Positions 22,973-64,000 of a DNA stretch of 64,000 bases are shown here, in pieces (position 1 is the first letter of the stretch; the number at the start of each line of letters is the position of its first letter). Origin of the DNA: Selaginella moellendorffii (taxonomy: Eukaryota; Plantae; Lycopodiophyta); contig NW_003314436.1 in the NCBI RefSeq assembly GCF_000143415.4, positions 56,279 to 120,278 of the forward strand. The letters are read 5' to 3'. The notes below the pieces were generated by a model that was given only the letters and a program-made list of their open reading frames with translations, was not told the DNA's origin and did not search any database. The translations under genes were made by a program, and so were the position numbers.

Positions 22973-23402
22973 CTAAGTCTAGAAAACTTAAAGCCTGACC
23001 TTGCTCAATCCTCCTTTCTTCCGTCGTTCCATTCCTGCACACACAGAACCATAGCTCTTGTCAGCTCCATCATGATCGAAGAGAAAGGAATAAAAAAGGA
23101 AGGAGAAAACACTCCAAAAGAGAATGCACCCCACCAAAAAAATTGACAAAGGAAGACAAAGCATCAGCATCCTACATTGTTTGCATCCCGACACTTTCTG
23201 AGAGAGCAATCTAAAATAAGAAGACTCACCCATTTGTTCGTGTCCATTGAAACCTTACCAAGAGGGGCTCTTCTTATTACCATGCTCTTCAACCTACCTA
23301 GGAAAAAAAACTGGTTTTTACAACTCAGGATATAAAACACTGGATGGTACATCCGCAAGAAACTCATCAGCCCAAAGGAACCAAAAGTAAGCAAAACTTA
23401 CT

Positions 23403-26400: not shown

Positions 26401-27150
26401 ATTCATGTTCAAGGCCCTGGCAAGGTTTGTTACGGTGTTAAATCAACGAGAGCGAGATGAAACAAGCTTACAAAAATCTGAGGCTCTTCAGCCCTCCAAT
26501 CTCGAACGGAATATCTCCAGTGAAGCCACACGATTGCAAGTTTCTAAAGCAGATGAGCGTCAGCAAAACGGAAATGCTAACTAAAGAACTGTACAAGAAT
26601 TCCAGTTTCGTCAGCTGGCCCAAAGTTTTGGGAAGAGGCCCAGTCAGGTCGGGATTAAACGACAAATCCCTGCGAACACAAAACAAGTGTGAGCTTTGTC
26701 GCTGGTGAAAGTCGAAAAGGAGAGAGAGAGAGAGAGAGAGAGAGCTCACAGTGTTTGGAGATTTGCAAGGTTTCCAATCGACAGTGGCAGCTGCCCGGCT
26801 ATATTCATGTTGTTCAGTATCCTATAAAAGAAAAGAATATCCTATAGATCGAAGAAGACATGGAAGAAAGACAAACTTACAACTTGGTCACGTTGTATGA
26901 ATTGCACGAAACTCCAATCCACCGAGATCCACACGGATCACCACCACTCCACTGCAAATTGGCATTGCGAAAGCCCCGTGACACGAGCCTCAGCGCAGAC
27001 GCTGCGATAGAATCAATCAGACAAGAACAATCGTCAGCACCAAACTTTTCCACTCAACCAAGAATGCCTACTGTCAGATTCGAACGTGGAGGGAGAAGCT
27101 CGATGGATGATGACACCAAGAACAAGGAACCACAGCGCAATCCACTCCAT
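23403..27150 (-). CDS. LRR-VIII-1 receptor-like kinase (HPCA1/CARD1-like), copy 1; multi-exon, spans an assembly gap
   Basis: Signal peptide [15 protein letters not shown]; 72-nt LRR exons; Cxxx[13 protein letters not shown]; TM helix; kinase motifs [46 protein letters not shown]. Confidence 0.9.
24060..24159. other. Assembly gap (100 N) inside a kinase exon
   Basis: N run; the paralogues suggest about 31 codons are hidden. Confidence 0.99.
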
Positions 27151-27771
27151 GGCACCGCGGCCGTGCCTATCACGGCATTTGTAACCCCAGGAGCTGGAAA
27201 TTTCCGGAAAATCTGCCCTGTTTCTACACGATTGATCGAGAAAGCCCTGAGTGAAATCCCCGGAGAGCTGCTTACCGCCAGAGATTGGACGGCAATGTAG
27301 CGCCGCGCATCCACGAAATCCAAGCGCTCTCTCTCTCTCTCTCACGCTCGAGAGCTCGTGTCACATCCAATTCAATTCAATTCAATAGCTGACGTGGAAT
27401 AACCCCGTGACGTGTGTGGCAAAAGAACTAGCTCTGTAAATCCACGTGGCATAAGAACCAGCCGCTGGATCCTCGCTCGATTGACTCAAGCGTTATTTAC
27501 AGCAATTCTGTTATTCCACTAATTGTTTTTAATACGTGGGACTTTGACCTGCTGTGGCCAGCTTGTAAACGTGTAGTTAAAAACTCTAGTTAACTATCTT
27601 ACAGTTAAAAAATCTAATTAACTAACTTAAAGTTTACATTGCATTTTCTGACTTACGACAGAAAGGGATTAACCCCCTGTAGAAAGGTGGAGCTTATGCT
27701 TCCATGAAACACAAAAGCCAAAGATCCACTGATGATAATTTGGTATATTTTGCCACATCAATCATCTAATC

Positions 27772-27871
27772 NNNNNNNNNNNNNNNNNNNNNNNNNNNNN
27801 NNNNNNNNNNNNNNNNNNNNNNNNNNNNNNNNNNNNNNNNNNNNNNNNNNNNNNNNNNNNNNNNNNNNNNN
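27772..27871. other. Assembly gap (100 N)
   Basis: N run. Confidence 0.99.
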
Positions 27872-27924
27872 ACTTTTTCATTCATTACTATTATTTATAT
27901 AGCAAAGAATTTTACATTTATGCG

Positions 27925-30900
27925 CTACTTGGGAAGCACATTGGACTGGAAGATCCCGCTATAAGCAAACTCTGGATCGTTGCCACGCGAGAGAACGTCT
28001 GTATCGTCATACAAACTTCCATCTCTGGTTCCGCTAAACTCAAACCCATTGCCGCTAGCGTCGTTGCCGTCAATGAGGAGCAAGAGCTCGAGCTGCTTCA
28101 CGACTTGGCCCATGCTTGGCCTGTTGGCCCCCGCCTCTTCGACGCACTGGAGTGCCAAGTCCACAAACTTGATGAGATCGCTCTGTGGAACGTTCTCCAG
28201 GTTGGGATCCAGTAAAGCTCCGAGAGCCGTCAAGCCACCCCTGTCCAGAGCTGTTTTCACCTCTCTCACGATGTATTTCCCGCGAGAGATCGGCTGCCGC
28301 GCTGTTAGAAGCTCCAAGAGCACCACACCGAAGCTGTAGACGTCGCTCTTCTCGGTGAGCTGCTGCGTCATGTAATACTCTGGATCGATGTATCCCTGTG
28401 TGGAAGAGAGCAATCAAAACAAAACAAAGACAAGAAAAAAGAAGAAAGTTTTTGCTTACCAGTGTTCCTTTGACTTGTGTTATAGAGGCGTGAGCCCTGT
28501 CCTCCTTTCCCAGCCCGAAGTCAGCAACCTTGGCTTTCAGATTCTCGTCGAGTAAGATGTTGCCTGACTTGATGTCTCTGTGGATGATAGAAGGACTGGC
28601 AAGTTCGTGGAGGTAAGCCAGACCTTTGGCTGAATCAAGAGCAATCTCGACGCGTTTGTTCCAGCTGAGGTGCCTTGAATTTGCTGCAAACAAGATAAGG
28701 AACCATCAAAACACATTCGAAAAAGTAAAAAACAGTTATGTTTACTACCAAGATGATCTCTCAAGCTGCCGCTCGCCATGTATTCATAAACGAGCATCTG
28801 TGATCCTTGCTCGTAGGAGAATCCAATGAGGCCAACGAGGTTTCTGTGGTGCACCCGCGATAGAAGTTCGATCTCAGTCTTAAACTCGCCGCTGCCTTGC
28901 ATGGATCCTTCCTCAGCTTTCTTGATTGCGACTTCTTCTCCTGTTACTAAAACACCTTTGTACACCTGGAAGAAGCAGGTTAAAATAAGTAGAAGTTTCA
29001 AAAACAGTCACCTTTCCATAGCCTCCAGAGCCAATCTCATTTGCACTGCTGAAATTATTCGTCGCCTTATTAAGTTCGTGGAGTGAGAAATATCGAGCAC
29101 CTTTGAGCTTTGGTGCGCTTCCGCTTTTTCCCATTGATCCCCAAGAAGCTGTAAGTCATATTTGTTACTCGGATCCCCTAAGAGCGGCAAAAACTTACTG
29201 AATGGTTTGGATAGTGCTTTGTCTGCTCTTTTCTTCTGGAACATAGCATAAGTGACAGCCGCAACTACAGCCAGGACTACCGCAACTGCTCCAACTGAGA
29301 TCCCAGCAACTGCACCTTTGCTAAGACTTGATTTTTTTGCAGCAATATTACCTGATAATGAACAAGACATCAGGACAGAAAACACTCGAGACTTGAAAAT
29401 TACCTCCAAGTGCAAAAGCCGAGATGACAGAATAAGGCCCGAATTCCGCTGGAAAACTAGCATTTGTATGGAGAGCAATTCGCGTAAGTATCTTCTCAGA
29501 CTCCCTGTACTCCATCTTGTCCTTTCCTTTCTCAGGAAACACATAAACTATAACTTGAAGTCGATAGCTTGACATCCATGCAGCACCTCCTACCGTCACC
29601 CGTTCCGGAGCTACGAGAGTTTGATAAGAGACGTTTGCTTTGACAGTATTCATTCTGTCCTGGCTGATGTCCGAGAAGGATGGAGCATTGAACTGGAAGA
29701 TGATAGTGACAGGGAAAGCACACGAACACAGTTCCAGATTCCGGAGCTTGCCGTCGGTACAAGTGATTGAACAGGTTTGATTGGTAGAGTTCCAAGTTGG
29801 TGAGATTATTGGCGCGCAGACAGCTTGGGACAGATGAAAGCTATTGTCGCTACAAACTGGATTTCCCACCAGGCTGCATGAAACATGCTTAGGATGAAAA
29901 AAGAAAGATTTAAACACATACGAGAGATTGAAGCTGTCAACAATGCCTATAGCTTGAGTGATCATGTTGCCGTTCAAGTTTACAGACTTTAGTCGCTTTA
30001 CAGTACTCGGAAAAGTGACTGTTCCTGATAGCTGATTATTAGAAAGAGAGCTGACATAAAAGAAAAAATCTTAGACTTGATAATAAAATAGATTTCCTTA
30101 CACAGATTCTAGTGCCGGAAGCGCAAAGAGGCCATCTGGAATCGTCCCATTCAGAAACCCCTTGTCAATTTTCCTTTACGAACAACAACCAGTTATTATA
30201 AAATGAAGGAAGTTGGCACTCACAATGTTTGCAAGTTTGTGAGATTTGAAATGCCCGGCGGAAACGGTTGAGGGCCATAAACGTTTTCACCCACATTTCT
30301 GAAAATTCCAACTGCATGAGTACAAAAAGGAGAAGGTTTTGCTTACAAAAGCAGTATGCCCTTCAGAGCAGAAAAATCTGGCAGAGTACCCACTAGACTG
30401 TTGTTGGCAAGGTGCCTGTAACAGTCATTCGTATCAATGAGCATCAAATTCAACACATTAACTTACAGTTCCAAAAGCTTTGGTATCTGATTGATAGTAG
30501 CGGGAATGGTACCTTGAACACGATTATTGTCAACCCTCCTGATAATAAAAATTATTGTCAGCTTTAAGCACCACCAAATAGCAAAACTTACAAAATCTCC
30601 AAAGCCGCAAAGTTTCCGTACTCCACTGGAATTTCTCCAGTGAGAGCGTTGTTTTCAACCATCCTACATCCAAAAAATAAATTCTGGAAGAAATTGGAAC
30701 AAGAAGGAAAGCACTAACAAGTGTCTAAGAAACTTTAGCGTCGCAAGTTCCTTGGGTAGACTTCCTGATATTGAGTTGTTGAAAAGATGGCTATGTCGCA
30801 ACAAAACGATATGAGGAAAGGACCATCAAATCAAAGCTACTTACATGTGAACAACGCTGGTGAGGTTGTCGAGGCCAATATTTTGAGGAACTGACGTAGA

Positions 30901-31747
30901 AACTGGCAGCGGACCAGTAAGACCATTTTGTGCGATGTCAAACCAAGTAACATTCGGGAAGCCACCAAGCTCCGGAGGAATACTTCCTGTCAATTTGTTC
31001 ATGTTTAACGCACTGATAGACAACCTTTGTCAGCACCGAAAGCAGCAATTCTCTTGCTGAAGCTTACAAGAACTTCATGTTTTTGAGAAGCCCAAGCTCT
31101 TTTGGCACTGATCCATAAAAGTTGCATCCTTGCAAACTCCTGCCAGGAATAGGTTGGTTTTAAAACGGGAGATGGAAAAAGACGGGTACTCACAAGTATT
31201 GCAAGTTTGTCAGCCGGCCGAGCTCTTTTGGAATCTCTCCTGTCAATTGTGGGTTGAAGGAAAGGTCCCTACAGTCCTTAGACAGATTAATAAGATCACG
31301 AACAACGAGAGACTGTTTCTTACAGGGCCACTAAATCGGTGAGATCTCCAATAGCGGATGATAGTGTGCCAGTTATGTCTCCTCGGTTGGAAATCCTGCC
31401 AGAAACCCAGTAAGTATGAGCCGATCTGAGAGGAAAGTGCTTACAATCGTATAACCGAGTTTGTGCTGTTGTTACACACAACTCCCCGCCAGGAAGAGCC
31501 ACAGGGATCATAATCCGTCCAGTTGAGATGGGTTGATTGCCAGTTCTTGAAAAGGAGCTGCAAAGCAGCAACTGGAAGAAGGAAGAACAGAAGAAAAAAA
31601 AAACGAAGATTAGTCTCCAAAGGAAGAAAGAAGAAGAAAAAAAATCCACTGAAGCTGACCATCTCGAGTATTAGTAGCTCCCAGTACGTGGAGAAGAAAT
31701 CGCCCAAAAATCCACAATGCTAGTCCCAGCCTCCTCCTCCACTCCAT
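27925..31747 (-). CDS. LRR-VIII-1 receptor-like kinase (HPCA1/CARD1-like), copy 2
   Basis: ATG 31747 [29 protein letters not shown]; [16 protein letters not shown]; LRR exons; CSITC..CSCAFP..FNAPSFS; TM helix; complete RD kinase. Confidence 0.92.
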
Positions 31748-32380
31748 TCCCAGCTCTCAATCACTCCCTGGAACAAGACATTTCTCACAAAACAATTCAA
31801 CGCTTTCCTTACTGGTACTATCCTCTACCAAGTCAACCTACGTGAGGACATGCTTACCCTGTCACTCACGACGCCAAGTTGATCGATTAAATCCCTGGAC
31901 GACCGAGCCAGTCGCGCAATAGTGCCAGATCGAAGCGGCGCCACTGTGGATGGAAGCGACAAGCGCGTAGCACCAGCAGGGCCCCTGCCGCTCGTAGCTG
32001 CCGGCATTGCGCTATCTCTTTCCATCCCGCCCTAGCTCAATACAAAATTCTCACTCTTGGGAACGGACGGCCTGGATTTGACTGCACGGATCGACGGCAT
32101 AGAATGTACTTGATTAGAAGGGGAGAAAGAGTCAAAGCGCGAGAGTTTTGTTAGCGCGCAGTGGTCAAAAGATTGGATCGTCCTTCGCAAAGCCGCGATT
32201 TGACTCGGCTGCGCAGTCATCTTCGTTCATTCAAATCCGGGTTCTGTGACTGGGTCTTTGCGAAAGTCCGTGCTAGAACACTAAATGCGCGAGCGGAGCT
32301 TGAGGGCCGGGTGGATTCCATCGCTTCGAGGTGCCCAAGAGGGAATTTTCGCCAGGTAGCCGGGAAGATTGATCAGGGAC

Positions 32381-36662
<4,282 letters not shown>

Positions 36663-37689
36663 TTCTTCTCCAGTCACATTTTCAAATTGGACGGTCGAGA
36701 TCAAGAGCTTAGCTCAATGGACGGATTGGATGACACTTTCGCGAAGAACCCAAAAACAGGGCAATGGCTAAGCTTTGGCTGTTGTGCGGCTTCAGGGCTC
36801 GCTGTTGCTGCTGCTGTAACATACGAATTTTGTATAGGTTGAAATACATTGAGAACTTGATCTTTACAAATTTATAAAATACATATGAGTTCATATGAAA
36901 TATCATAAATCACGTAACGAATGTAGCATTCACCTCCTAATGAACAAGATCTTGCTCCTAAGACTAAAGGAGGAGTATTAAATAAAATATAACTTTTCAC
37001 TTTCACTAGTTATTCTCTTGTTAAGATTCTTTAAAATTTACCTAGTAATTCACAAATACTATATAAAGATTGAGAGGTTAATGTATTAGTAATAATAATA
37101 TGAAAAAAACTCAAAATTTCTCATGCTTGTAAGTATGGTTCTTGGTGTTCAGTTATACCTTCTCCCAAAAATTGAACTTTATATCTTTAGATTCATCACA
37201 AAGAGGTGTATAAAGCTTTTATATTGAAAAAAATTATAAAAAATTAAAAATTTGATGATTATTCTTACTGATAATATCAAGAATTGATCATATCAAAGAT
37301 CTTCCCTTTCTCAATCACCATTAAGAAGTCATATTCCTACAAAAGAAGGATCCTTGATGACTATTGCTAGAATTAGACTTATTTAGAGGCAGCAAACTAA
37401 TGTGTGATAATTGATATTTTTCAATAAAATTTGAATTCAGCATTTGATTAAGTTTGGTAATTTTAGGTAGGAAGTGATGATGAAGGTAATTGAATATGAT
37501 TGAACCATAAATTTTATGGGATTTGTAACTGTAATTCTTTTATAATTAGCCAAACAAGGAGATAAATTGTGCAGTTATTCTAACAAGTGTTAAAGTCCTT
37601 GCTAGTGTCTTTGTTCACCTATGAGTGTGAAGAAGATTTATAAACATAATTAAAGAAATAAATAATACTATATAATAATTGTCAGAAAT

Positions 37690-49049: not shown

Positions 49050-49535
49050 TGTATAAGCCACAAATGTTTCTTTTTCAATTTACCAATTTACCTTGTCTAT
49101 CTGACCATGTATTGGCCTTAGTTAAGTTCTTTTACCAAGGTTCCCGCCTATTGTACCAACTACTACTTGGTTTCAGTTACTCACTGCATGAGCAACAAAG
49201 CGTTAGCCATCCATCCATGGATTCCCCAAATCTCTCCCAATCCCCCTCCCCGAGTTAGACTGGACTTAAAGGTTCAATTGCACTCCCCGCAGACACAAGC
49301 AGCCAAGCACACCAAGCCTCCAAGTTCCTAACATTTCTTGGTACAAGAAGACTTGATCATAAAACCTTCTAAATTGAAGCCTTAGGTGCAACATTTGCTT
49401 TGGGACATTGGGGGAAAACACCATGGCCTATTAACCTGGTATAAATACCTCTATTCGCCCACTTCCATCTCAAAGGCAAGGCCCAAACCCCTATGAAAGG
49501 CGAGGACTAATAAGTTATAAAATACTCAAGTGGGG
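49050..49535 (-). mobile_element. Decayed LTR (3' part) of the same Gypsy family, inverted
   Basis: Reverse complement aligns with ~51730-52232 (TGTGGCTTA.ACA end; GGGGAGGGGGATTGGGAGAGATT; GAATTAGGAAC-like segment). Confidence 0.8.
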
Positions 49536-50241
49536 TGTAAGTAACTAAATTTTCCATTCTACTTTAGTCACTTAACCACACTTCCAACCACTTGGAGGAG
49601 TCTCACTCACAACCTCCATAAGTCCTATTCCAGACTTGGGGCTTGCTACCCCTAAGAATGACATCCATGCCACTCAACCGTTGCACTTGGTCTAAGCACT
49701 CCACATGTCCAATCTCATGACTAACACCCCAAAGGTATCACCGACATATCAGCCTATTACACTAAAACTATGCCCATTCACCTTTATCCCATGGTGATCC
49801 AACACCACCTACGTTGCCATCCCATCTCTCAAAGACTGGGCTATCCATCCAGACGACCACTAAGTCCCCCTGTCCTCTAGGACTTCTTCACCAAGTGACT
49901 GTGTCTTTGGTCACTACACTAGAGGGTTGCTCCTCTTCCTTTCCCTAATGTGGGACTTTGGGGCAACATTTTGGAACACTGTGGCCTTATGTGAGCCACC
50001 TGGGTACTCTCCCTGCCTTCTGCCTTTGGGTGCTCTAGCCATAGACTTAGAGCGAGGTTCTATTGAGCCACACTAGGTATCCAAGTAAGTAGTGCCACCC
50101 ACACTTGGACTGGGAGTATTGACCATTTGATCTCTTAGGGGAACTAGAGTTGGCTCTTGAACACTTCACAAAGCTGCCCCGCTTGTTTGTCCGTATTCAC
50201 TCTAATCTTGGATTTCCTAGTGGTTATCTCATCACCTAACA
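49536..50241. mobile_element. ~700-bp TG...CA-bounded segment, possible solo LTR of another family
   Basis: Starts TGTAAG exactly where LTR homology breaks and ends CTAACA; no TSD. Confidence 0.35.
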
Positions 50242-50246
50242 CCTGA

Positions 50247-51465
50247 GTATGGTCTTCTTGGGCCAAACTAGCTCCATTGAGGCCCAACCCACACTCTTCT
50301 TACTATACTTTTGGAACCCCCCGCACAACCCCCCCCCCCCCCTGGGGGACGATCGCTTTGGGCTTTCACCCAATAGCTTGTATTATTCGAACTCGGACTC
50401 GGTCTTGAACTCGGATCAATCACAATCTTGGTCTCGATCTCGATCTCAGTCTCGGTCTCATCTCGGACTCCATCTTGAACTCCATCTCGGACTCCATATT
50501 GGGTCCTTCTCGAGTTCCATCTCAGTCCATCTCGGACTCCATCTCGAGTCCATTTTGGACTCCATCTCGGATTCCATCTCGGACTCCATCTCGGACTCCA
50601 TCTCAAGTCTTTCTCGAGTTCCATCTCGGTCCGTCTTGGACTCCATCTTGGGTCCATCTCGGACTCTATCTCAGATTCCATCTTGGACTCCATTTTGGGT
50701 CCATCTCAGACTCCATCTCGGGTTCATCTCGAACTCTATCTCGGGTCCATCTCGGACTCCATCTCGGGTCCATTTCGGACTCCATCTCGGACTCCATCTC
50801 GGTCCATCTCAGACTCCATCTTGGACTCCATCTTGGTCCATGTTAGACTCCACCTTGGATTCCATCTCGGGTCTATCTTGGACTCTTTTTCTAGACACTC
50901 TCTTATTGCTTGTTTCGTACCTGTTCCTCGAGCCTCCGTTGGGAGTTCCACTCCCGCTCTCGACTTTTCAAGTCAAAGCTTTTAGTCCAAACGTGTTACT
51001 CTCAATTGGCTTTTACTTTAGCCACTACCACGTGGCACCCTTTTGGCTCCACTTTGGGGCTTAGGGATTTGTGTTTCACAACTCCACTACCCATAGACGA
51101 AGTTCAATGTCCTCATCGAATAATAAACCATTTTATAAAGTAACACTAACATGTATTACCCTTTCCATCTTTAGCACCTAACCAATATTTGTCAATGGTT
51201 TGACATTAAAGGCTCACCATGCTTTGTCCATCCTCTAAGGAGTATAGTGTCCCCAATATAAAGACTCATTTGACCACCTAGGGTGGTTCTCTCCCTTTTA
51301 TTTGTTTAATTCTCACTAAACCCATTAAAGACACATTTTCTATCTCAATCCCACTACTCATTTTTGAGTAGTTTTAGTTTCCATCGATATAACCTTTGCA
51401 CTTTGGAAGTTTTTATTTTTGACTTTTCGAGGTCAATTTCTTGGGTGTCTCCAACACTTTATATT
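50247..51465 (-). mobile_element. Inverted 3' end of a related Gypsy subfamily: 3' UTR, PPT (51081-51092) and LTR starting TGTGAAAC at 51080, with a 12-bp tandem array at 50390-50890
   Basis: Reverse complement TTCGATG..CATTGAACTTCGTCTATGGGTAGTGGAGT|TG matches 57429-57470; (TCCGAGATGGAG)n; GGGTGAAAGCCCAAAGCG..poly-G. Confidence 0.75.
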
Positions 51466-51466
51466 G

Positions 51467-52232
51467 CAGGGGGGGGGGGGGGGGGGTGCTACAAGGGGTT
51501 CCAAAAGTATAGTAGGGATAGTGAGGTCCAAGAATCAGTTTTGAAGGGACTCTCCAGTGGGGCTTCCAAACCGACTTGAGGTTGAGACTGGGACCGAGGG
51601 GCCTTGGGTGGGAGTGAGTATGGACTTGGTTGGTGCTGGAGGGGCCATCCAAGGAAGTGCTCAAGAGCAGCTCCCACTCCCGAAATGGAAACTAATTGCG
51701 GTGCTCCCGGTTTATATGGAGTGGTGCCCCACTTGAATACCATGTGGCTCATTGGTCCTCGCCCTTCCTAGGGGCTTGGGCCTTCCTTCGGGATGGAAGT
51801 GGGGGGGGGTAGAGGTACCCATACCGGGCCGCTAGGCCACGGTGTTTCACCCCGGCGTCCCGAAGCAAGTGTTGCACTCAAGACTTGGGATTTAGAGGGT
51901 CCCATGATCAAATCTTGTGGTACCAAGGGATGTTAGGAACCTGGAAGATTGGTGTGCTTGGTTGCTTGTGCTTGCGGGGAGTGTAGCCGAACCTTAAGTC
52001 CAGTCTAACTCGGGGAAGGGGATTGGGAGAGATTGGGAATCCGTGGATGGATGGCTAATGCTCCGTTGCTCGTGCAGTGAATAGCTGAAAGCAAGTAGGA
52101 CCAAGTAGGAGTTGGTACCATAGGCGAGAACCTTGGCGAGGGAACTTAGCAAAAGCCAACTTGCAGAAGGCAGTGTCGGACGGATAGACGAGGTAAGCTA
52201 GCAAATTGGAAAGGAAAAATTTGTGGCTTACA
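51467..52232 (+). repeat. 5' LTR, truncated on the left at the poly-G tract
   Basis: Roughly 94-95% identical by eye to 57880-58632; ends GGCTTACA. Confidence 0.9.
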
Positions 52233-52235
52233 ATT

Positions 52236-52248
52236 TGGTATCAGAGCC
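52236..52248 (+). other. Primer-binding site, tRNA-iMet
   Basis: TGGTATCAGAGCC 3 nt after the LTR end. Confidence 0.93.
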
Positions 52249-55200
52249 TTTTCCTCAGTTCTAGCGAAGGATAGAGGCGGATTGCTGGGAGATGGCAAGG
52301 GCAGGGCGTAAGCGAACCCAAGCGGAGACGGAACCTCCGCCGGAGCTGGAGCCTCCGGTTGAACAAAAGGCTATGGATGAGGAATCCTTGCATGAGGAGG
52401 ACTCTAGTGAGGAAACTTCCAAACAGGAGTCCGGTGGCGAGGTTCGGTCATCCAAGGCTTGATTGGATGTGCTAGAAGGACAGTTGGCACAGACCAATGC
52501 CCTGTTGGAAACTCTTGTACGCAAGCTAAAGCGTGACGAGAGGCGGAAGAAAAAGCGAAAGACTGCGGATGCTGGCAGTGCAGAAGGTGCGGACCTTTCG
52601 GCGGGGACTAAGGCAAAACCAGACAAGGTCAAACAGACCGAAGTAGAATCAGTCCTTTAGGCAGTTCCCAAGTACAAACCAAAGCCCCCACCGGTCTTCA
52701 AGGGAGTGAATGATTATAAGGTGGTGGAGGATTGGTTTTACGATATGGAGGACTACTTCCGAACGTTGCGATTACCGAGCTCGGAGAAGGTCCCATGTGC
52801 AAAACCATACTTGGCAGATAATGCCAAGTCTTGGTGGAGAACGACAGAGGCCAAGGAAGGACCGGTGGCCACTTGGGACATGATGAAGGCGAGGATCCGC
52901 GCAACATACATTCCTCCGAATGCCACTTTGCATCTAAGAGATGAGTTGTGTAGGCTGAAGCAGACTGGAACCATCCAAGAATATGTGAATGGGTTCATGG
53001 CAAAGAGGATACTGGTCACGGACATGGGGGATATGGATGCGTTCCATGCCTTCATATCAGGTTTGCAAACCTGGGCTCGCGGCGAGGTGACGCAATGGAA
53101 CCCGACCAACTACAAGGAAGCGTTGGATGCTGCCATCAAGGTGCATTTCAACGATAACCTGTGAAAGGGGAACACGACGGGGTCGGGATCCACATTTAGC
53201 AAAGGGGCCAAACCAAGGGGAACGTATAGCAAGGGGAAATTCAAGAAGAGTTTCTCTAAGAATGAGTCCTCGGGGTTCCGGAAAGGCAAATCCGGTGGCC
53301 AGCGAGCGAGTACGTGGGGGAGTCAAGCAAAAAAAGACAAACCCACGGATAAGAAGGTCAAGTCGTATAGCAGCGTGGGAAACAACGTATGTTACAACTG
53401 TGGTGAAGCGGGACACTTTTCGAGGGAATGTCCCTACCCGAAGAAGGCCAGAGCCAATATGGCCATCAAGTCGAGTGAAGTCCAAACTGAGGTATGTGAT
53501 CCAGTCCCTAACTCAAAGTTACTCATTACACGAGCAACTTTGGTAGAGAGTCGTTCGCGCCATCTACTAGCCCTCCGAGGGAAGCTCAGAGGTAGCTTTG
53601 TTAAAATCCTTATTGACACGGGTGCTTCGGATAATTTTGTGGCTACACACATAGTCCGGCAAGCCGGACTAACGGTGCAGCGGCTAGGCGAACCAAGGAC
53701 TATAGAGTTTGTTCAAGGTAGCCAAAGCACCGATGAGGTACTTCGACAAGCGAGAGTCGAAGTAGGGACATGGAAAGTAGACATGGATTTCACCGTCTTG
53801 GACATGGCGGGATTTGACGTGATCTTCGGAATGGATTGGTTTAATCGGTTCGTGGTAACCCTGCATGGACAAGGTAGGAACCTTGTGGTACTGGCGAATG
53901 CCCAAGGAAGAAGATCTAGGGCGGAGGCCCAGGATCTAAAGGTAGGGCAAAGTAAGGCCAAAGATTCCTGCTTAAACCTGGTGTCCACGAGAGGACAACT
54001 CACCAAAGGAACTAAGGCAGCCTTTTTGTGCTTACTCTCGGTGAAGAGTGACAAAAAGACAAGAACGGAAGAAGTACCTTTGGTGATCCAGCGGGTGTTG
54101 GACCAATTCCAGGATACCATGCCGGAGGAGCTACCAGCGGGGTTGCCCCCCGCACGACCGATAGAACATAAGATTGAGTTGGTCGAGGGTGCTAAGGCGG
54201 CGGTTCGCCCCCCCATCGTTTGAACGAAAAAGAACTCAAGGAGCTCAAGTGCCAACTAGAGGAGTTGGTGGATAAAGGGTATGTTAGGTTGAGCAAGTCG
54301 CAGTATGGGGTACCGGTGTTATTTGTGAAAAAAAAAGATGGTTCTATGCGCATATGCATAGACTACCGGTTGCTCAACAAGTATACAAAGAAGAACAAGT
54401 ACCCTTTGCCAAGAATTGAGGACCTGTTCGATAGGTTGGGAAAGGCAAAATATTTCTCGAGGATTGACCTAAGGTCAGGATACTACCAGATCAGGGTAGC
54501 CAAGGAAGATGTCGAGAAGACAACCTGTCGAACGAGGTATGGGAGCTTTGAGTTTCTGGTGATGCCCTTCGGGCTATGCAATGCGCCGGCAACGTTTTCA
54601 GCGCTGATGAACCACATCTTTGTACCCTACCTGGATCACTTCGTGGTCGTCTATATCGACGACATCCTGATCTATAGCGAGACGCTAGAGGAGCATGCCG
54701 AACACTTGGCGAAGGTGTTTGAGAAACTAAGGGAACACAAACTGTATGCTAAAGAGAGCAAATGTGACTTTGCTCAACAAGAGGTAAAGTTTCTCGGGCA
54801 TGTGGTGGTCCAAGACGGGCTCAAGGTGGACCCGGAGAAGGTCCAAGCGATCTAGGAATGGGAGCGACCATCGAATGTACATGAGTTGAGGGTGTTCTTG
54901 GGGTTATGCAACTACTACCGAAAGTTTATCAGACACTATTCGAGAGTAGCCCTGCCCTTAACGGACCAAACAGGAAAAGGAAAGATGGTATGGATAGCGG
55001 AATGTGAGGCGGCATTCGTCCACCTCAAAGGGAAGTTGAGGAAGGCTCCCGTGTTGGCATTACCAGATTTTGGTAAGGACTTTGAGGTAGACACGGATGC
55101 TTCGGACTTTGCGTTGGGTGCAGTTTTGAAGCAAGACAACCATCCAGTAGCGTTCTTCTCGAAGAAGTTGGACAAGGCTCAACGGAAGTGGCCTGCCCAC

Positions 55201-56164
55201 GAGAAGGAATTGTTTGCGGTGGTCAAGGCACTCAAGGAGTGGCGACACTACCTTGGGAGACACTTCAAGGTTTACACAGACAATGTGGCAATGAAACACT
55301 TCTTGTCACAGTCCGACCTGAGAGGGAAACAAGGTCGGTGGGCCAATGCCTTGGCCGAGTTTGATTGCGAGATTCTGTACAAGCCTGGGAAGAGCAACAT
55401 CGTGGCAGATGCGCTAAATCGAAAAGCGAGCTTGAGGTTGGCGATATCCAGTGCAACAGCAACCTTCTGGGACGATGTGCGGACAGCATATGAGAACGAT
55501 GGTCTAGCGTAAGAAGTGTTGTTGAGGAATCTAGAGGCGTGGGAAGCTCACCAGAGAGGTGAGCTGCCAATAGAAGAGAAAATTGGCTATGTGGAACGCA
55601 ACGGACTCATCTATTACAAGCAAACGAGGGTGTATGTTCCAGAAGGGGAACTAAGGAAGGTAGCCTTAGAAGAGTGTCATGATGGACCTTTTGCGGGACA
55701 CGGCGGAGTGCCCAAGACGATGGGCTTACTCAAGAGGAAGTACTATTGGCCAGATATGGCTAAGGACGTCCAAGACTATGTAAAGACATGTCCAACATGT
55801 CAGCAGGTCAAAGTCGTGACTAAGGCTAGTGGGGGCTTGTTGCAAAGCATCCCAATTCCAGATCGTCCGTGGAAATGTCTTACGATGGACTTCATCACGG
55901 GACTTCCCCCAAGTGAGGGGTTTGATGCGATATTCGTGGTGGTGGACCGATTTTCGAAAATGGCACATTTCATACCCACCACAACGGAAGTGGATGCGGA
56001 AGGTGTGGCGAAGCTGTTCTTCGAACAAGTGGTTCAAGTGCGGGGAAGGCCGGAAGAGATCATCTCAAATCGAGATAAGATCTTCACTAGTAGGTTCTAG
56101 AGGACTCTCCTGGAATAGTATCGCACCAAGTTGAAATTCAGCACCGCCTATCACCCACAGACAG

Positions 56165-56211
56165 GTATGGGGTATTAAGTCAAGTTTGGTGACACTAACA
56201 CTTCTTGACAG
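56165..56211 (+). other. 47-nt GT-AG intron in the integrase (HPQT/D-GQTER)
   Basis: G|GTATGG...CACTAAC..CTTCTTGACAG|AC; removal restores frame and motif. Confidence 0.85.
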
Positions 56212-56629
56212 ACGGACAAACGGAAAGGGTGAATAGGCAGCTGGAGGATTATTTGCGATGCTATGTCTCGGGAGACCAGACTGATTGGGTAAGTCATTTG
56301 GGACTTGTGGAAATGTGTTATAACAACTCACCACATTCAAGTATCGGGGTGAGTCTATGGGAAGTCATCAATGGGCGAGCTATTGAAGGTCCTGTGGAAC
56401 TCGGCGTGGCCGAGTATCATGGAGAGCTACCCGTAGTGGAGGCATTCACAGCGGAAAGACTCAACATTTGGAATCTAGTGAGGGATTCCTTGGAACGGGC
56501 TTAACAAAGGCAAACCAAGTACGTGAACCTAAAGCGCCAGGATGTAGAGTTCCAAGCTGGGGAGAAGGTGTGGCTGAACACTAAGAACCTCAGGCTACCA
56601 AGTGGGATCAGCCAAAAGTTGACCCAAAG

Positions 56630-56681
56630 GTAAAAATGCATGTATTCCTATAAATGAATTGATCTTGAGTCCCTTAAGCAG
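56630..56681 (+). other. 52-nt GT-AG intron in the integrase (KLTQ/R-FAGPY)
   Basis: AG|GTAAAA...CCCTTAAGCAG|G; AT-rich; removal restores frame and the GPY motif. Confidence 0.85.
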
Positions 56682-57456
56682 GTTCGCGGGGCCTTACGAG
56701 ATTGAGGCACGAATTGATAAAGTGGCTTACCGACTCCAACTTCCTCAAGAGATGGGGAAGATGCACCCAGTGTTCCATGTGAACTTACTCAAGCCGTACT
56801 TTGAGGATCCGCTTTGCAAGGACCAAGTAAGACCTTTACCTGAGCTTATCCAAGGGGAAGAGGAATATGAAGTCGAGGCCATCCTCAATGTGCAGAAGAG
56901 CAAGCGACAAGGACGCGAGGTGAGAGAGTTCCATATGAAGTGGAAAGGATTTCCATACTGCGAAGCAACATGGGAACTGGAGGAGAACCTAGTGAACGCG
57001 TGAGATCTAGTGGAAGAATTTCTGCAAGGCAGAACTCTATGTACTTATGCAAAGTTCAATTAAAAATATCAATTTCCAAAGTTGAGCAAGTGGCATATGT
57101 TGGGACCCGAAGGCGCACCGAAGTTAAGCTAATTAGCATGGGTTAGCTAGGTCGACCAGGCGTAGGGAGCTATGCCCGACTCCCTACGGGGATGTCGAAT
57201 CCGTAGACGTATTCTACGGAGGTTGGGTTCGAGTCCTAACCCCCTAGTAAAGCAAGGCTGAGTTCAAGTCCCGACCCCATACTAGGGCGTGGTGAGGTGA
57301 GGAGTATAGGGACACCTATATTCCATTGTCATGGGCTCTTGGCCAGGGAGGCTAACTTAAGCACACCGCTAAGTGGGGGGATGCCCCCGGAGACATGGTC
57401 AACAAGTCGTAAGATTAAAAGAGAGACGTTCGATGTGGGCATCGAACTTCTTCTAT

Positions 57457-57468
57457 GGGTGGTGGAGT
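57457..57468 (+). other. Polypurine tract
   Basis: GGGTGGTGGAGT immediately before TGTAAG. Confidence 0.75.
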
Positions 57469-58632
57469 TGTAAGGAACCAACTCACCGAGGTGTCGTAGG
57501 CTAAAGGAACCCCGAAAGCATGACCAAAATTACAAAGAGTTCATCGGATGGGACCAAGTCGAAGATCGAGTCCAAGACTGACTCGGAGACTGAGTTCGAG
57601 ATAGAGTCCGGAATCGAGTCCGAGACCGACTCGGGGACCGAGTTCAAGACCGAGTTCGAGACCGAGTTCGAGACGGAGTCCGAGATCCGAAATCGGGTCC
57701 TAGACCGAGTCCGAGGTCGAGTCCGAGGTCGGGTCCGAGATCAGGTTCGAGATCGAGTCCGAGATTGAGTCCAAGACCGAATCCGAAGTCGGATCCGAAA
57801 TCAAGTCCGAGATCGAGCCAGAGACTAAGTCCAAATACTAATACGGGTCAAGGGGTGAAAGCCCAAAGCGTGCGTCTCCCAGGGGGGGGGGGGGGGGGGC
57901 TGCAAGGGGTTCCAAAAGTATAGTAGGGATAATGAGGTCTAGGAACCAGTTTTGAAGGGACTCTCCAGTGGGGCTTCCAAACCGACTTGAGGTTGAGACT
58001 GGGACCGAGGGGCCTTGGGTGGGAGTGAGTATAGACTTGGTTGGTGCCAGAGGGGCCATCCAAGGAAGTGCTCAAGAGCAGCTCGCACTCCCGAAAGGGA
58101 AACCAATTGCGGTGCTCCCGGCTCATGTGGAGTGGTGCCCCACTTGAATACCATACGGCTCATTGGTCCTCGCCCTTCCTAGGGGCTTGGGCCTTCCTTC
58201 GGGATGGAAGTGGGGGGGTAGAGGTACCCATACCGGGCCGCTAGGCCACGGTGTTTCGCCCCGGCGTCCCGAAGCAAGTGTTGCACTCAAGACTTGGGAT
58301 TTAGAGGGTCCCATGATCAAGTCTTATGGTACCAAGGGATGTTAGGAACTTGGAAGATTGGTGTGCTTGGCTACTTGTGCTTGCGGGGAGTGTAGCCGAA
58401 CCTTAAGTCCAGTCTAACCCGGGGAGGGGGATTGGGAGAGATTGGGAATCTATGGATGGATGGCTAACGCTCCGTTGCTTGTGCAGTGAGTAGCTGAAAG
58501 CAAATAGGACCAAGTAGGAGTTGGTACCATAGGCGTGAACCTTGGCGAAGGAACTTAGCAAAAGCCAAGGCAGTGTCGGATGGATAGACAAGGTAAGCTA
58601 GCAAATTGGAAAGGAAAAATTTATGGCTTACA
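57469..58632 (+). repeat. 3' LTR (1164 bp) with an internal 6/12-bp tandem array (57555-57830) and poly-G
   Basis: Perfect 6-bp terminal inverted repeat TGTAAG...CTTACA. Confidence 0.9.
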
Positions 58633-58988
58633 TAGCCTTCTTGGGCCAAATTAGCCTTTCCGGGCCAAACTGACTCCACTGAGGTCCAACCCCCACCCTC
58701 TCCCTATTATGCTTTTGGAACCCCTTAAAGCCCCCCCTTCCCCCCCCCCCCCCCCCCCATGGGGGATGATCGCTTTGGGCTTTCACCCAACAGCATGTAT
58801 TAGTATTGGGACTCGGACTCGGTCTCGGTCTCAGTCTAGGTCTCGGTCTCGGTCTTGTCTCGAATTCCATCTCGGGTCCATCTCGAACTCCATCTCGGGT
58901 CCTTCTCAAGTTCCATCTCAGTCCATCTTGGACTTCATCTCGGGTCCATCTCGGACTCCATATTAGATTCCATCTCACACTCCATCTC
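58633..58988 (-). mobile_element. Inverted LTR fragment of the same subfamily as 50247-50890
   Basis: CTTCTTGGGCCAAA..poly-C..CGCTTTGGGCTTTCACCCAA..(CTCCATCTCGG)n matches 50250-50560. Confidence 0.8.
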
Positions 58989-59620
58989 TGTAGCGCACGT
59001 GGTTTTGACCTTTTATCCTATGGTGATTTACCATAGGATAACACCACGAAGCGGAACCTAAATCCTCTTTGTGCCACGTGACAGATGCCACGTGTCACAT
59101 GCCACGTGTCCATGCCACGTGTCCATAGGAACCCGAGGTTCAGAGCCTTGGGCCACTGAACAAAGGAACGGTGTGAACTTCCCAACCATGGACCCAAGGA
59201 GTGATGGAACCGACCCATGGAGTAACTCCCGAGCATAAAGCCCAAGGGGCAAAGGGACCGGGGCCCGGGGCGACTTGGAACAATCCTAGGGTAACCAACA
59301 TCCCAATGCTAGGGCTAGCCCCCAAAATGGAGCCAAACGGGGTTTGGCGCTATTTCGGCATACCGGTGGCCTAACGGGGGGACATGGGTTCTCCCCCAAC
59401 TAGCATGGAATGGAACTTGGGCTTAGACCCAACCCGGACGCAGAACAAGGACAGGCCCCCAAGCGGGAGCTAGACTTTCCCTCAGGTTGGTGGGCCATGC
59501 CCGACCTACCCCCTATCCCTACTATACATTTGGAACCCCCCAAAGCCCCCCCCCCCCCCCCCCTGAAGAACACATGCTTTGGGCTTTCACCCCAAGCCTC
59601 CCTTAGTATAAGGAGTTAGT
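58989..59620 (-). mobile_element. Further LTR-like segment with a G-box array and the shared poly-C/GGGCTTTCACCC motif
   Basis: Starts TGTAGCG at the point homology breaks; 59520-59595 repeats the LTR motif. Right end uncertain. Confidence 0.5.
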
Positions 59621-60699
59621 CTCTGGGACAAGCTCGAAACTTACTAAATATGGAATGTCCTTAGATTGCGAATTTGGGCACGGGACGAACACCATTGTGT
59701 TCAGGACAATCTCTACATTCTGTAGATATGCCAAATGAGCAAATCTAGACACTTTCCATAAATAGCATTTAGGACCGAAGTGAGACTAACACAAAGGGCA
59801 TGATAGCGAAAGTGTTTGGCAGACACGGTAAGCTATCATGTAGCGATATTGAGAGACCAATCTCAATACGCGAGGGTTCTTGTCACTAGCAAGTGCAAGA
59901 CAAAACGAGACGGGAACTCCTTACCGGGCTAAGTATGCTTAGCTAATAACACGTAGGAATTCCGTCCTTATGCTCGTCCGGTCTAAGTACACTTGAAATG
60001 CCCAGTTAACTCCACTAGCACAAGAGGGACTGATAAAGGGTCCAGCAATACCGACCTCCTGCCATCGTGGCAGTAAGGTAAGAGTGTCCGTAAGGACTGG
60101 TCGACAGGTAACTTTCAATACCCGAAGTCACATTCGCGACACTCTCCCCCCCTAGGGAAGATCGACGTCCTCGTCGATGCATACTCCAGTCTAGAATACC
60201 GCCAAGGAAACAACTCCAGAAAAAGTTCACGGTATTCACACCATGTGAGAAATGCATCAACTTAAATGAGTTAGGGGGCAACCTCTTTGTCTAACGCGGA
60301 TGCGCTACTAGCTCAGACACCTTCTGGCCGTCGCCGACAAGGAAATGACCAACGGAGTTAGCCACCCTTGCTGCTATGGGAGTCACCCAGCTTACAAAAG
60401 TGTGATATACCCCTGCCCGCAAGGACATAGAGAGAGAAGCCAAAGGCCCCAACCCTTCTAAGCAAAGAAACCAAACCCGTTGGTAAGGTTTAGATAGACT
60501 ACTGTAAACAGGCAGTTAGAGTTGTTTACATGGTCACGCTCTTTTAACGGAATAAGGAACATCGAAAGAGAGGCGGGTTGTGTGACCAGTTGACAGTAGT
60601 TACCCCATGACTAGAGATTTCAACATGCACACGAAGTGCCGAAGCCAGTCTGCCTATACTGGCCCAAACTCAAAGATCAATAGATGGACAATATCAAAG

Positions 60700-63600
60700 T
60701 TAGAGACAATGATAGCTTAGAGACTTAATTATCAGTGAATATATCTTAGATTAGAACACAAAAGTATTCCAAGCAAGTTATCATCCGATAAACTAGTATT
60801 ATAGGATAGGAACCACCAAGATCATCATAATTGGTAAACATAGAATTCACTATCAAACAAAATTCAATAGCAAGTGTATCATCAAGAAAACGCAATGACC
60901 AAACTTAACTATCAAAGATTGCAGACAGAATGCCAAACAACTTACGAAAGATAACTCAAAGAACACAAAGTATCATTAACTGACAAGCAAAATACTCGCG
61001 AATGTATCACCCAAAGGAAAGAACATCCAAATCTATCAAAACTAACTCGAGCAACAATCAACAGAAGAGAATGAATATGGTAAGACCAACAAACACTCAG
61101 TCCTGCCAACTATCATAAAAGCCAATCTGAATAGATCCCAGCCAACAATACCAAGGAATTCAAGTTGCCTAAGAAAGTGTCAGCAACATCCTATTGATGT
61201 CTCAAACCCAAGAGACCAATCCAAAGCAAATCACAAAGAACATGTGATATTGCAAAAAGCCACAAGCCATCAAAGAGAACAACTAACCACCATAAAATAT
61301 CATTAATCATCCTATCGATAGAGAAATGCATAATCATCATCGAAGAAAGAATCTACTATCTCGAAGAACAATAAATCATTTTATACCAACAATAATCAAG
61401 CAAAACCCTAGACAAGGATAATCAACTATCTTAGATGATAGTCAATCATCACCAATGATTGCTAGATGCAAATACTAACGTCAACATCGAAGCTAATGAG
61501 CCAAAATGCCTTCCCCCAACAACTCCTAACAAATGGAACAATGAGCATGAAAACTCAAAGAACTAAAAGCTCGAAGAAGTCTATAGCCAAATATTGCCTA
61601 ATAATGATCACGAGTCTCGCATGGACTAACGTCAATGCTAAAGAAGAAATCATGGTACAACCCACAATATCTTCCTCAACACATCTATAAGCTAAACTTC
61701 ATAATGCCAAAGCTAATGAAGAGCATATCTGTATCAATCCAAAAGCTAAACATAACGAAGCTATGCTCAACAAGTGATCACTAAATGATCCTCCATAAAT
61801 CCATCTATAGCAAGACGTAACTCACTTCATAACAAGCACAAGAAGAATCATCAATGATCGATATATTCCAACTCAAATCTAATAAAGATTTAAACATCCA
61901 ATATCAATCACTAACTCTTCTGCTTGTAGAGTTAGCATAGTCCATGACTAAATCACTTTTCAAGGAAAAGCCAAAGCTTAACCCCTACTAAATAATCTTG
62001 TCTAAAACACAACTAACTCAAACTTGCCACTCAGTTCATTTGAACGTCAACATAGTTGCGAATTAGCAAATGTATGAATGCCAATAACACAAAGCCATAG
62101 CCAAATCATCAACACTATCTTCATTAAGACTAATGAAACTCGACATCAATCTTGTGGAGAGACATCTCATTTCACTGAAATCTCAACATCAACAATGTCA
62201 ACAATAAGGCATCACTTCAGTGCCACCAACATTAGAACAAAGCTAGAAGAAAGCACCAGTGTATCACCACTCAAAGCTCTCTAGCAACCAAGCTAACCAA
62301 AGTCGGAGATACTTTACTCAATATCCGAGACCAATCTCTCAACAATACTCAGTCACAGATAATACTTCCTCAAGGAGTGAATCACCACGTCCAAGACTCC
62401 ATGAAATCCAACACTATGAACTAAACGCAACCAAATGATATCAACAGAGGTAAAGTCGACATGCCAACATGGAAAACCCATGTAAGTCTAACGACACGAT
62501 CCTCCGCAACACCATCCGGTAAAGCAAGCCTATCACTGATAAATCTTTATCGAGTGAAGCAAGTGTCAACAGTCCTTAATAAAGTCTACAAGCAATCACT
62601 AGTTGCCAAACAACTAACCATCACTTTTCAACTTGCTTTTATGAGACCCAAACACTAAACTCACGTCATTTAGTCATACATTTGTCCAACATGAACATGA
62701 TACCTTCGGTATGAGATAAAAGTTCATTGACAAGCACAAACTAAATGACCACTCGAATCCAACTCAACTGCAATAAGCTCACTAATGCATTTAGCCACTA
62801 GCTCTGAGCATGCCTTGAAGAAGCTAGCTATGCATGATCAACACTCAGCTGAAACTAAAGTGAAGACCATGAGATGGATCTATATTGGTACACAACCTCC
62901 TCATAGACAAAGCTATAGTATGGGTACTAACATCTCAAACTCAAACAACTAAGTTGGACATCATCATCCTTAGCCAAGGTGCAGGGCCACCAAGACTAAA
63001 TCAAGATCAGTGAGAGCTCACTACTCTCATAGAGTCTAACGAAATGCAAAGTGCAACCTGCCACCAAGCATAACGCTACAAAAGAAAGGTACAAGGGTCA
63101 CCTTTCTCAAAAAAGTGCAACAACCACTTTTCTACACTAATTCCAGACTCTATCCAACTCAATTGCCTTAGCCCCAAAAGTCAGCATCCCTTTCGGGCCG
63201 CATCATACAAACTACATACTAAAGTCTAAGCTAACTGAAGTCAACTCCAACCCCTTCACTAGTTTGTATTGGCTTTTGAAAACGGAATGGTTTTCGAGCA
63301 AAGTGATAACAGATCAGCCATTGGAAAAGTCTAAGAAAATTTATGGAAAATTTTCCATCCTAGAGAAAGAATGGCTCTCAGTCCAGGAATGCAAACTTTC
63401 AAGACTCAACCAACTTCCTCCTACTTAACCACTTCACATAGGCTCACCTCAACACAAATTCTTATGATCCATAGTATGTTTAAGCCTCGAACATCTTTTT
63501 ACCCATTCTTCCGACATCCAATACCGACATCCGCAAAATGCAAAGTGAACATCCAAGGCTTGATCACGAAGACCACATCTTCGGATATCCACATTGCACT

Positions 63601-64000
63601 AACACTCTTCTTCAATCACCTTCAAGATACAATGTGAAGCTAAAACACTAACAAGAAAAATGACATGGAAAATCAAGCTTTAAGGAAACTTCCTCATCAC
63701 TTAAAATAATAATGCCACTTCCACTAACACAAGTGCTAGTAATGTCAATGCTTCAACCTCACACCTTCTCTATCCAACAATCTACTCCAAGTGTTAACGG
63801 ATCAACTAATGAGCTATAGCAAATGAATGCTACAACCCTTTCTAACACCTTATGGGCAAACCCTCAAGGAAATAAGGAACCAACTTAAGCTTAGCATAAT
63901 GAATCACCATTGAGAATCCAGTCAAAGCTACTACAATGCTACTTCGTGCAAGTAGACTAGCTTCACTATCAACCACTTTGGGGTTGATCATTATAACCAA
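60700..64000. other. Strongly strand-skewed (A/C-rich on +) decayed sequence, probably TE internal region
   Basis: No intact ORF; compositional skew; lies next to the LTR nest. Confidence 0.35.

Follow-up and report, generated by a model that had tools for sequence, protein, structure and literature searches.

Introns placed in LTR retrotransposons are lost within a single cycle, which is the basis of the standard transposition reporters. In the accessible part of a 2025 review, Ogre and EVADE are the only intron-bearing LTR elements of plants that are named (PMC12786077). In Ogre (Ty3/gypsy, Tat lineage), an inter-ORF intron is spliced from part of the transcripts, after which the downstream pol is translated, as the accessible sections of three papers describe (PMC6317226, PMC3735527, PMC12786077). 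In barley BARE1, a capped, polyadenylated RNA pool lacking R is described as the one that is translated, and a separate, unspliced pool as the one that is packaged (PMC3735527, in part). Penelope-like elements also keep introns after retrotransposition, and one Selaginella family has an inferred intron; as far as the available text goes, these elements differ from LTR elements in having no integrase and in using another mechanism, and those of their introns that have been studied for function are in the 5′ UTR (PMC8557442).

The family that concerns us was described from the lycophyte Selaginella moellendorffii as SM1-Galahad, a member of the Galadriel clade with hundreds of copies that are about 95% alike (Novikov et al. 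2012, PMC3350952). According to the accessible text of that paper, SM1-Galahad elements are ~7.5 kb long, with LTRs over 1 kb, poly-G tracts of 11-25 bp and a 13-bp tRNA-Met primer-binding site (PBS). Their multi-copy consensus was read as three separate ORFs of 3885 bp (1295 aa, without a chromodomain), 316 bp and 309 bp, with the group I chromodomain in the 309-bp ORF only (given there as 113 aa, while 309 bp corresponds to 103 codons), and no intact copy is reported in the text available. The words "intron" and "splic" have 0 occurrences in the accessible text and supplement (PMC3350952).

Here, we describe an element at 51467-58632 of a 64-kb window (the whole stretch of S. moellendorffii DNA that was analysed) that carries two short inserts inside its integrase. 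It is alike to Ogre, as described in the sources cited above, in that a sense-strand intron is kept in genomic copies and partial splicing serves pol translation. Ogre has an extra RNase H, a tRNA-Arg PBS and its intron between PROT and RT, whereas this element has a chromodomain, a tRNA-Met-type PBS and both inserts inside integrase: it works like Ogre but is not an Ogre. With BARE1 and EVADE/copia it would share the translation of spliced RNA, but the logic there is the opposite, as all enzymes come from the unspliced RNA and the spliced form yields Gag alone (PMC3735527, PMC12786077, accessible parts).

Structure of the element

The element is an LTR retrotransposon with the marks of a chromovirus: LTRs, PBS, polypurine tract, a gag-PR-RT-RH-IN order and a chromodomain at the integrase C-terminus. 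Its features, assigned from Pfam matches and sequence, follow one another on the forward strand.

51467..52232, + strand: 5′ LTR, first ~410 nt missing; begins at the poly-G tract, ends ...TTACA
52236..52248, + strand: primer-binding site, 13 nt, presumably of tRNA-Met type (sequence)
52292..56164, + strand: exon 1; gag, zinc knuckle, protease, RT, RNase H, integrase HHCC domain and the first two catalytic positions (Pfam)
56165..56211, + strand: intron 1, 47 nt, phase 1, GT..CAG; absent from the X17 contig and from one X21 read
56212..56629, + strand: exon 2; remaining integrase catalytic core, linker, start of the SH3-like domain
56630..56681, + strand: intron 2, 52 nt, phase 2, AG/GT..CAG/GT (slashes mark the cuts); absent from the X17 contig, but one X21 read enters it
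56682..57063, + strand: exon 3; GPY/SH3-like domain (PF24626) and group I chromodomain (PF00385, about 56866-56997); stop at 57061
57457..57467, + strand: polypurine tract, directly 5′ of the 3′ LTR (sequence)
57469..58632, + strand: 3′ LTR, 1164 nt, TGTAAG..CTTACA; contains a poly-G tract of 18 nt and, internally, a tandem array

The truncated 5′ LTR matches positions 414-1164 of the 3′ LTR with 718 of 753 aligned letters identical (95.4%), and 32 of the 35 changes are transitions. With a whole 5′ LTR, the element would measure 7564 nt. The PBS, which we take to be of the tRNA-Met type, agrees with the 13-bp site described for the family.

The copy studied is dead: nine in-frame stops interrupt it, its frame slips once near 54210, and Asn occupies the site of the second catalytic Asp. 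We rejected a programmed frameshift near 54210, as the published consensus has there one ORF that is exactly one base longer than that of our copy. The window holds no second copy of the integrase. Fragments of related LTRs, inverted and diverged (67-82%), lie on both sides of the element (49054-49535, 50240-50900, 58700-59050 and 59514-59626) and, together with the 5′ LTR cut at its poly-G tract, form a nested retroelement cluster. Within the 3′ LTR, short units of about 12 and 23 nt are repeated in tandem at 57552-57834, and the length of this array differs between the neighbouring LTR fragments.

Two other regions of the window deserve a brief description. The region 23400-36700 contains two runs of N and a group of three related receptor-like kinase genes rich in short introns; two of the genes are on the minus strand and the third is inverted. 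The stretch at 59600-64000 is A+T-rich with a strong strand skew, has no long ORF and no similarity to the proteins of the element, and is possibly a decayed element of another kind.

Assignment to SM1-Galahad

The element matches SM1-Galahad by described features and ORF lengths rather than by sequence alignment. Host, overall length (~7.5 kb), LTR length (1164 nt), poly-G tract (18 nt), 13-nt PBS and a chromodomain in the last ORF all agree. In our copy, the ATG at 52292 is followed by a stop inside insert 1 after 3884 nt, which becomes 3885 nt (1295 codons) with the frame slip counted; an ATG in exon 2 leads to a stop at the start of insert 2 after 318 nt (consensus 316), and an ATG in exon 3 leads to the final stop after 309 nt (consensus 309). 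Because of this agreement, the breaks between the published ORFs can be placed at the two inserts. Identity with SM-Tcn1, which has 440-bp LTRs and is without a PBS, was rejected. The family is thus already named, and the reading of its interruptions as introns is the new part.

Protein searches returned no close member of the family, with the best RT matches at about 70% and the best integrase matches at no more than 57%. In an RT-RH-IN tree built by a quick method (95 rows, matches <330 aa omitted), the element falls in a 13-row clade with 99% SH-aLRT support; the clade also holds two Vitis proteins and unnamed metagenome proteins, and the tree contains no named Galadriel reference. The two Vitis proteins are, we assume, Galadriel-type.

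Two inserts with the properties of introns

The original prediction placed inserts of 47 nt (56165-56211) and 52 nt (56630-56681), each GT..CAG, within the integrase, and these coordinates proved exact. The first insert runs GTATGG..TTGACAG and the second GTAAAA..AAGCAG. As had been claimed, they are of host-intron size: the six introns of the neighbouring host gene WDR83, one exon of which has 100% identity to a S. moellendorffii protein (P0292), measure 51-67 nt, placing the inserts at the short end of this comparison. Their GC content (0.40 and 0.33) is close to that of the WDR83 introns (0.33-0.49), and their A+T content (0.60 and 0.67) is higher than that of the flanking exons (0.48-0.55). 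The CTAAC branch motif announced for insert 1 was found at 56195-56199, 17 nt before the end of the insert; in insert 2 the branch-like motif is weak (only TTGAT at -23). With GT..YAG ends, a branch-like motif (weak in intron 2), and host-like size and composition, both inserts bear the marks of U2-type introns. A random insert of such a size would read as GT..AG in 0.65% of cases (200,000 trials, junction slippage allowed), which gives a chance of about 4e-5 for two.

Removing both inserts restores one frame through AYHPQTDGQTERVN and KLTQRFAGPY, as predicted, and removing neither or only one does not. Without the inserts, the integrase frame extends from 55513 as far as the chromodomain by way of HPQTDGQTERVN and KLTQRFAGPY, which rebuilds HPQTDGQTE and FAGPY; it is broken when either insert is kept. 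The in-frame stops that had been noted in both inserts are at 56176 and 56631, so that the retained forms end with HPQTGMGY and QKLTQR, each followed by a stop. The chromodomain, matched in exon 3 by PF00385 (E 1.4e-11), is fused to pol only once the transcript is spliced.

The inserts also divide the catalytic site. The first catalytic Asp is encoded at 55888 and the second site, Asn in this copy, at 56068, both in exon 1, and the Glu lies in exon 2 at 56223-56225. Once spliced, 35 residues lie between the second Asp site and this Glu, the third residue of the DDE triad. Such D-x35-E spacing is typical of retroviral-type integrases. Through the exon 2 region, an intact relative (P0006) aligns with the Ty3 integrase structure 7q5b.

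Direct repeats of 5 nt (intron 1) and 4 nt (intron 2) flank the junctions. Folding predictions found no structure beyond that of shuffles in either intron (z -0.79 and 0.36). Short predicted stems at 56179-56209 and 56664-56678 end 2-3 nt before the acceptor end in both introns; should other copies conserve them, they would be candidates for a role in controlling splicing. Neither intron resembles the other or the rest of the window beyond words of 10-14 nt.

Presence in genomic DNA

The inserts had been proposed to be a family trait, and two lines of evidence uphold this: the published consensus, in the accessible description, breaks at both of them (ORFs of 3885, 316 and 309 bp), and DNA sequencing depth is undiminished over them. 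In a DNA run (X1), 22,445 contigs match 55400-57480 at 85% likeness. Relative to the median of the other 26 bins, the four that touch the inserts have depths of 0.93, 0.90, 1.00 and 0.95, where a family wholly devoid of the inserts would give 0.86, 0.47, 0.54 and 0.71; bin depths vary widely (0.48-1.5 million). Most genomic copies keep the inserts; the depth excludes a mostly intronless family, not an intronless minority. No precise skip at either insert was found among the best 15 of 40 X1 joints (weakest depth 133.5). Two X1 contigs cross insert 1 without a gap, differing from our copy at 30 of 206 and 23 of 177 letters (about 86% alike).

Together, the X1 data and the consensus ORF breaks rule out both inserts private to one copy and an assembly artefact. 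The DNA (X1) and RNA (X17) evidence comes from different samples, and rare or sample-specific intronless copies may exist within these data.

Removal in transcript-like sequence

Splice junctions joining the three exons had been suggested as a check in RNA data, and such junctions appear in transcript-like sequence. Run X17 yielded a single matching contig of 2500 nt (depth 11.2) that lacks both inserts exactly. The run is probably RNA; this status is a guess. No run listed with the stretch is recorded as RNA, and the RNA runs used were drawn from entries of small share or of the same species. The contig matches 55400-56159, 56207-56627 and 56680-57010, pieces that are contiguous in the contig, and the skips of 47 and 52 nt are equivalent to GT..AG cuts (shifts of -5 and -2). 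It differs from the copy studied at 79 of 1512 letters and, in the rows shown, its letters are those of the family majority. Of the five stop sites in the stretch, the four that are tabulated are sense codons in the contig. The contig stops at 57010, 50 nt short of the end of pol. The end of a contig is no guide to the end of an RNA; a short 3′ end near 57010, if real, would bear on the separate-pool model discussed below.

A second run, X21, is RNA-Seq on record and belongs to another study; nine of its reads, from about 1.4 billion letters, match the element, seven in one direction and two in the other as resolved from the depth table. As deduced from the same table, one of the latter two covers 41+33+70+6 = 150 letters, which fits an intron 1 skip exactly, although a single read is below the three needed for a joint to be listed. 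Another read goes 25 nt into intron 2 and then departs from the stretch, indicating either that intron 2 is not always removed or that DNA was present. A further run, X22, has two partly matching reads from about 1.4 billion letters and is uninformative on the introns; the reads, likely one pair, match 56042-56140 and about 56590-56630 and continue into other sequence, and one of the pieces adjoins the intron 2 donor.

The RNA support for removal is thin, consisting of one contig for both introns and one read for intron 1. Considering all of the above, we are highly confident that the family carries these inserts as genuine introns, and they are very likely spliced.

Relatives without the inserts

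The sister family in the same genome, SM2-Galahad, is described as intact, abundant and young, with LTRs that differ from those of SM1 (919 bp) and one uninterrupted 4731-bp ORF that runs through the chromodomain (PMC3350952, accessible text). It shares with SM1-Galahad the domain order and the group I chromodomain; unlike SM1-Galahad, its description implies no inserts. Three distant relatives from a viral collection (L001-L003) likewise maintain one frame over both insert sites. Among 312 proteins, 224 of 227 sites homologous to that of insert 1 continue as [DN]G, and the other three are not breaks (one false motif, two substitutions); eukaryotic gene models among these proteins may already be spliced, so that only ORFs derived from DNA count fully.

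When metagenome contigs were scanned by motif for an intron at this codon, six matches came up, none similar to the element, and these were set aside as chance. In three contigs of one metagenome, a short non-coding repeat (L006 380-456, L007 1243-1322, L008 148-222) has ACAG-rich ends that mimic the intron motif; it is unrelated to the element.

Judging from these comparisons, the introns were likely gained in the SM1 lineage after its split from SM2-Galahad. They likely arose as small insertions with end repeats of 4-5 nt, a pattern expected when DNA is inserted at a staggered break, with the caveat that such junction repeats are partly expected from splice-site preference.

A proposed division of labour between two RNAs

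We favour, with a probability of roughly 0.6, a sorting model in which mainly unspliced RNA is reverse-transcribed and active integrase is made only from fully spliced RNA. Translation of the unspliced RNA would yield Gag-PR-RT-RH with an integrase stub that ends before the catalytic Glu, at HPQTGMGY and a stop. The doubly spliced RNA would yield the whole 1557-aa polyprotein, including the C-terminal domain and the chromodomain. The genome that is packaged and copied would be the unspliced RNA. Sorting would be needed because the spliced RNA, which loses only 99 nt, could retain the priming sites; without sorting or selection, the introns would be purged or intronless copies would take over. 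The hundreds of copies that keep both introns must stem from unspliced templates, if the family spread by reverse transcription. By analogy with barley BARE1, sorting would most likely take the form of separate pools for translation and packaging.

An isoform that retains only intron 2 had been predicted to be an integrase without its chromodomain. Such a form would indeed lose the chromodomain, but a working enzyme is not expected, because most of the SH3-like domain would be lost with it: intron 2 cuts this C-terminal domain and leaves positions 24-63 of the 64 in PF24626 to exon 3. The product is likely inactive.

Alternatives to the sorting model

It is also conceivable, if rather unlikely, that the introns are real and integrase needs splicing, yet nothing is sorted: splicing would simply be inefficient where the element moves, so that the packaged RNA would be mostly unspliced by abundance, and intronless copies would arise slowly without becoming dominant. 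The X21 read that enters intron 2 fits this account, as do the position of both introns at the short end of host sizes and the weak branch motif of intron 2; the predicted hairpins adjoining both acceptors fit as well, though they are no better than shuffles. Against this, the sole X17 contig is doubly spliced, suggesting efficient splicing there, and intronless progeny, being autonomous, should accumulate, yet none was found among the best 15 of 40 X1 joints.

Improbable in our view is a family that is non-autonomous for integrase and moved by SM2-Galahad or a few intronless masters, with splicing incidental. A helper of this kind is available, SM2-Galahad being intact, abundant and young while no intact SM1 copy was found according to the accessible text (PMC3350952). 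However, SM1 and SM2 are treated there as distinct families whose LTRs differ. In the published consensus, neither exon 2 nor exon 3 is interrupted, and the two exons retain the catalytic Glu, GPY and the chromodomain. Moreover, two successive inserts that each break the frame are both removed exactly.

We consider it very improbable that intronless genomic copies are the source of the joined sequences and that the inserts, though family-wide, are unspliced today. Such a source is allowed by the guess that makes X17 RNA and by joint evidence that covers the best 15 of 40, but X21 is recorded as RNA-Seq and has a read with the same skip, both inserts carry canonical signals that chance would give at about 4e-5, and the X17 contig has the majority letters of the family; an exact double loss would itself need splicing.

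That the introns entered one copy and spread by DNA-level duplication without an RNA step is scarcely credible. In its favour, no target-site duplication can be read in our copy, whose 5′ LTR is without its outer ~410 nt, and none is given for SM1-Galahad in the part of the source available (PMC3350952, Table 1), but hundreds of copies are described as about 95% alike, older copies also have intron 1, and the LTR pairs are typical of retrotransposition. Even taken together, the absence of splicing and spread at the DNA level are distinctly improbable.

Significance for SM1-Galahad and its host

SM1-Galahad is a named family with a previously unrecognised and unusual gene structure, in which two ordinary small introns persist inside integrase across hundreds of copies. 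We found no report of introns in SM1-Galahad or inside the integrase of an LTR element in the literature searched, with subscription journals, Repbase, REXdb Additional files 1 and 3 and the supplement of the genome paper outside its scope. On balance, by a slight preference, we regard SM1-Galahad as the first LTR retrotransposon with spliceosomal introns inside the catalytic domain of an enzyme, two introns having been gained while the family was active and carried through hundreds of copies under a strict separation of unspliced RNA that is copied from spliced RNA that makes integrase.

The family was described without an intact copy because its introns break the ORFs. Annotation based on ORFs would score such elements as dead, and others may hide in genomes with small introns. 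The sister family, intronless and resident in the same genome, provides a reference for dating the two intron gains, and the element offers a natural test of how genomic RNA is chosen where genome and mRNA differ by only 99 nt. If the sorting model is true, the last step in the life cycle of SM1-Galahad would be under the control of the host spliceosome.
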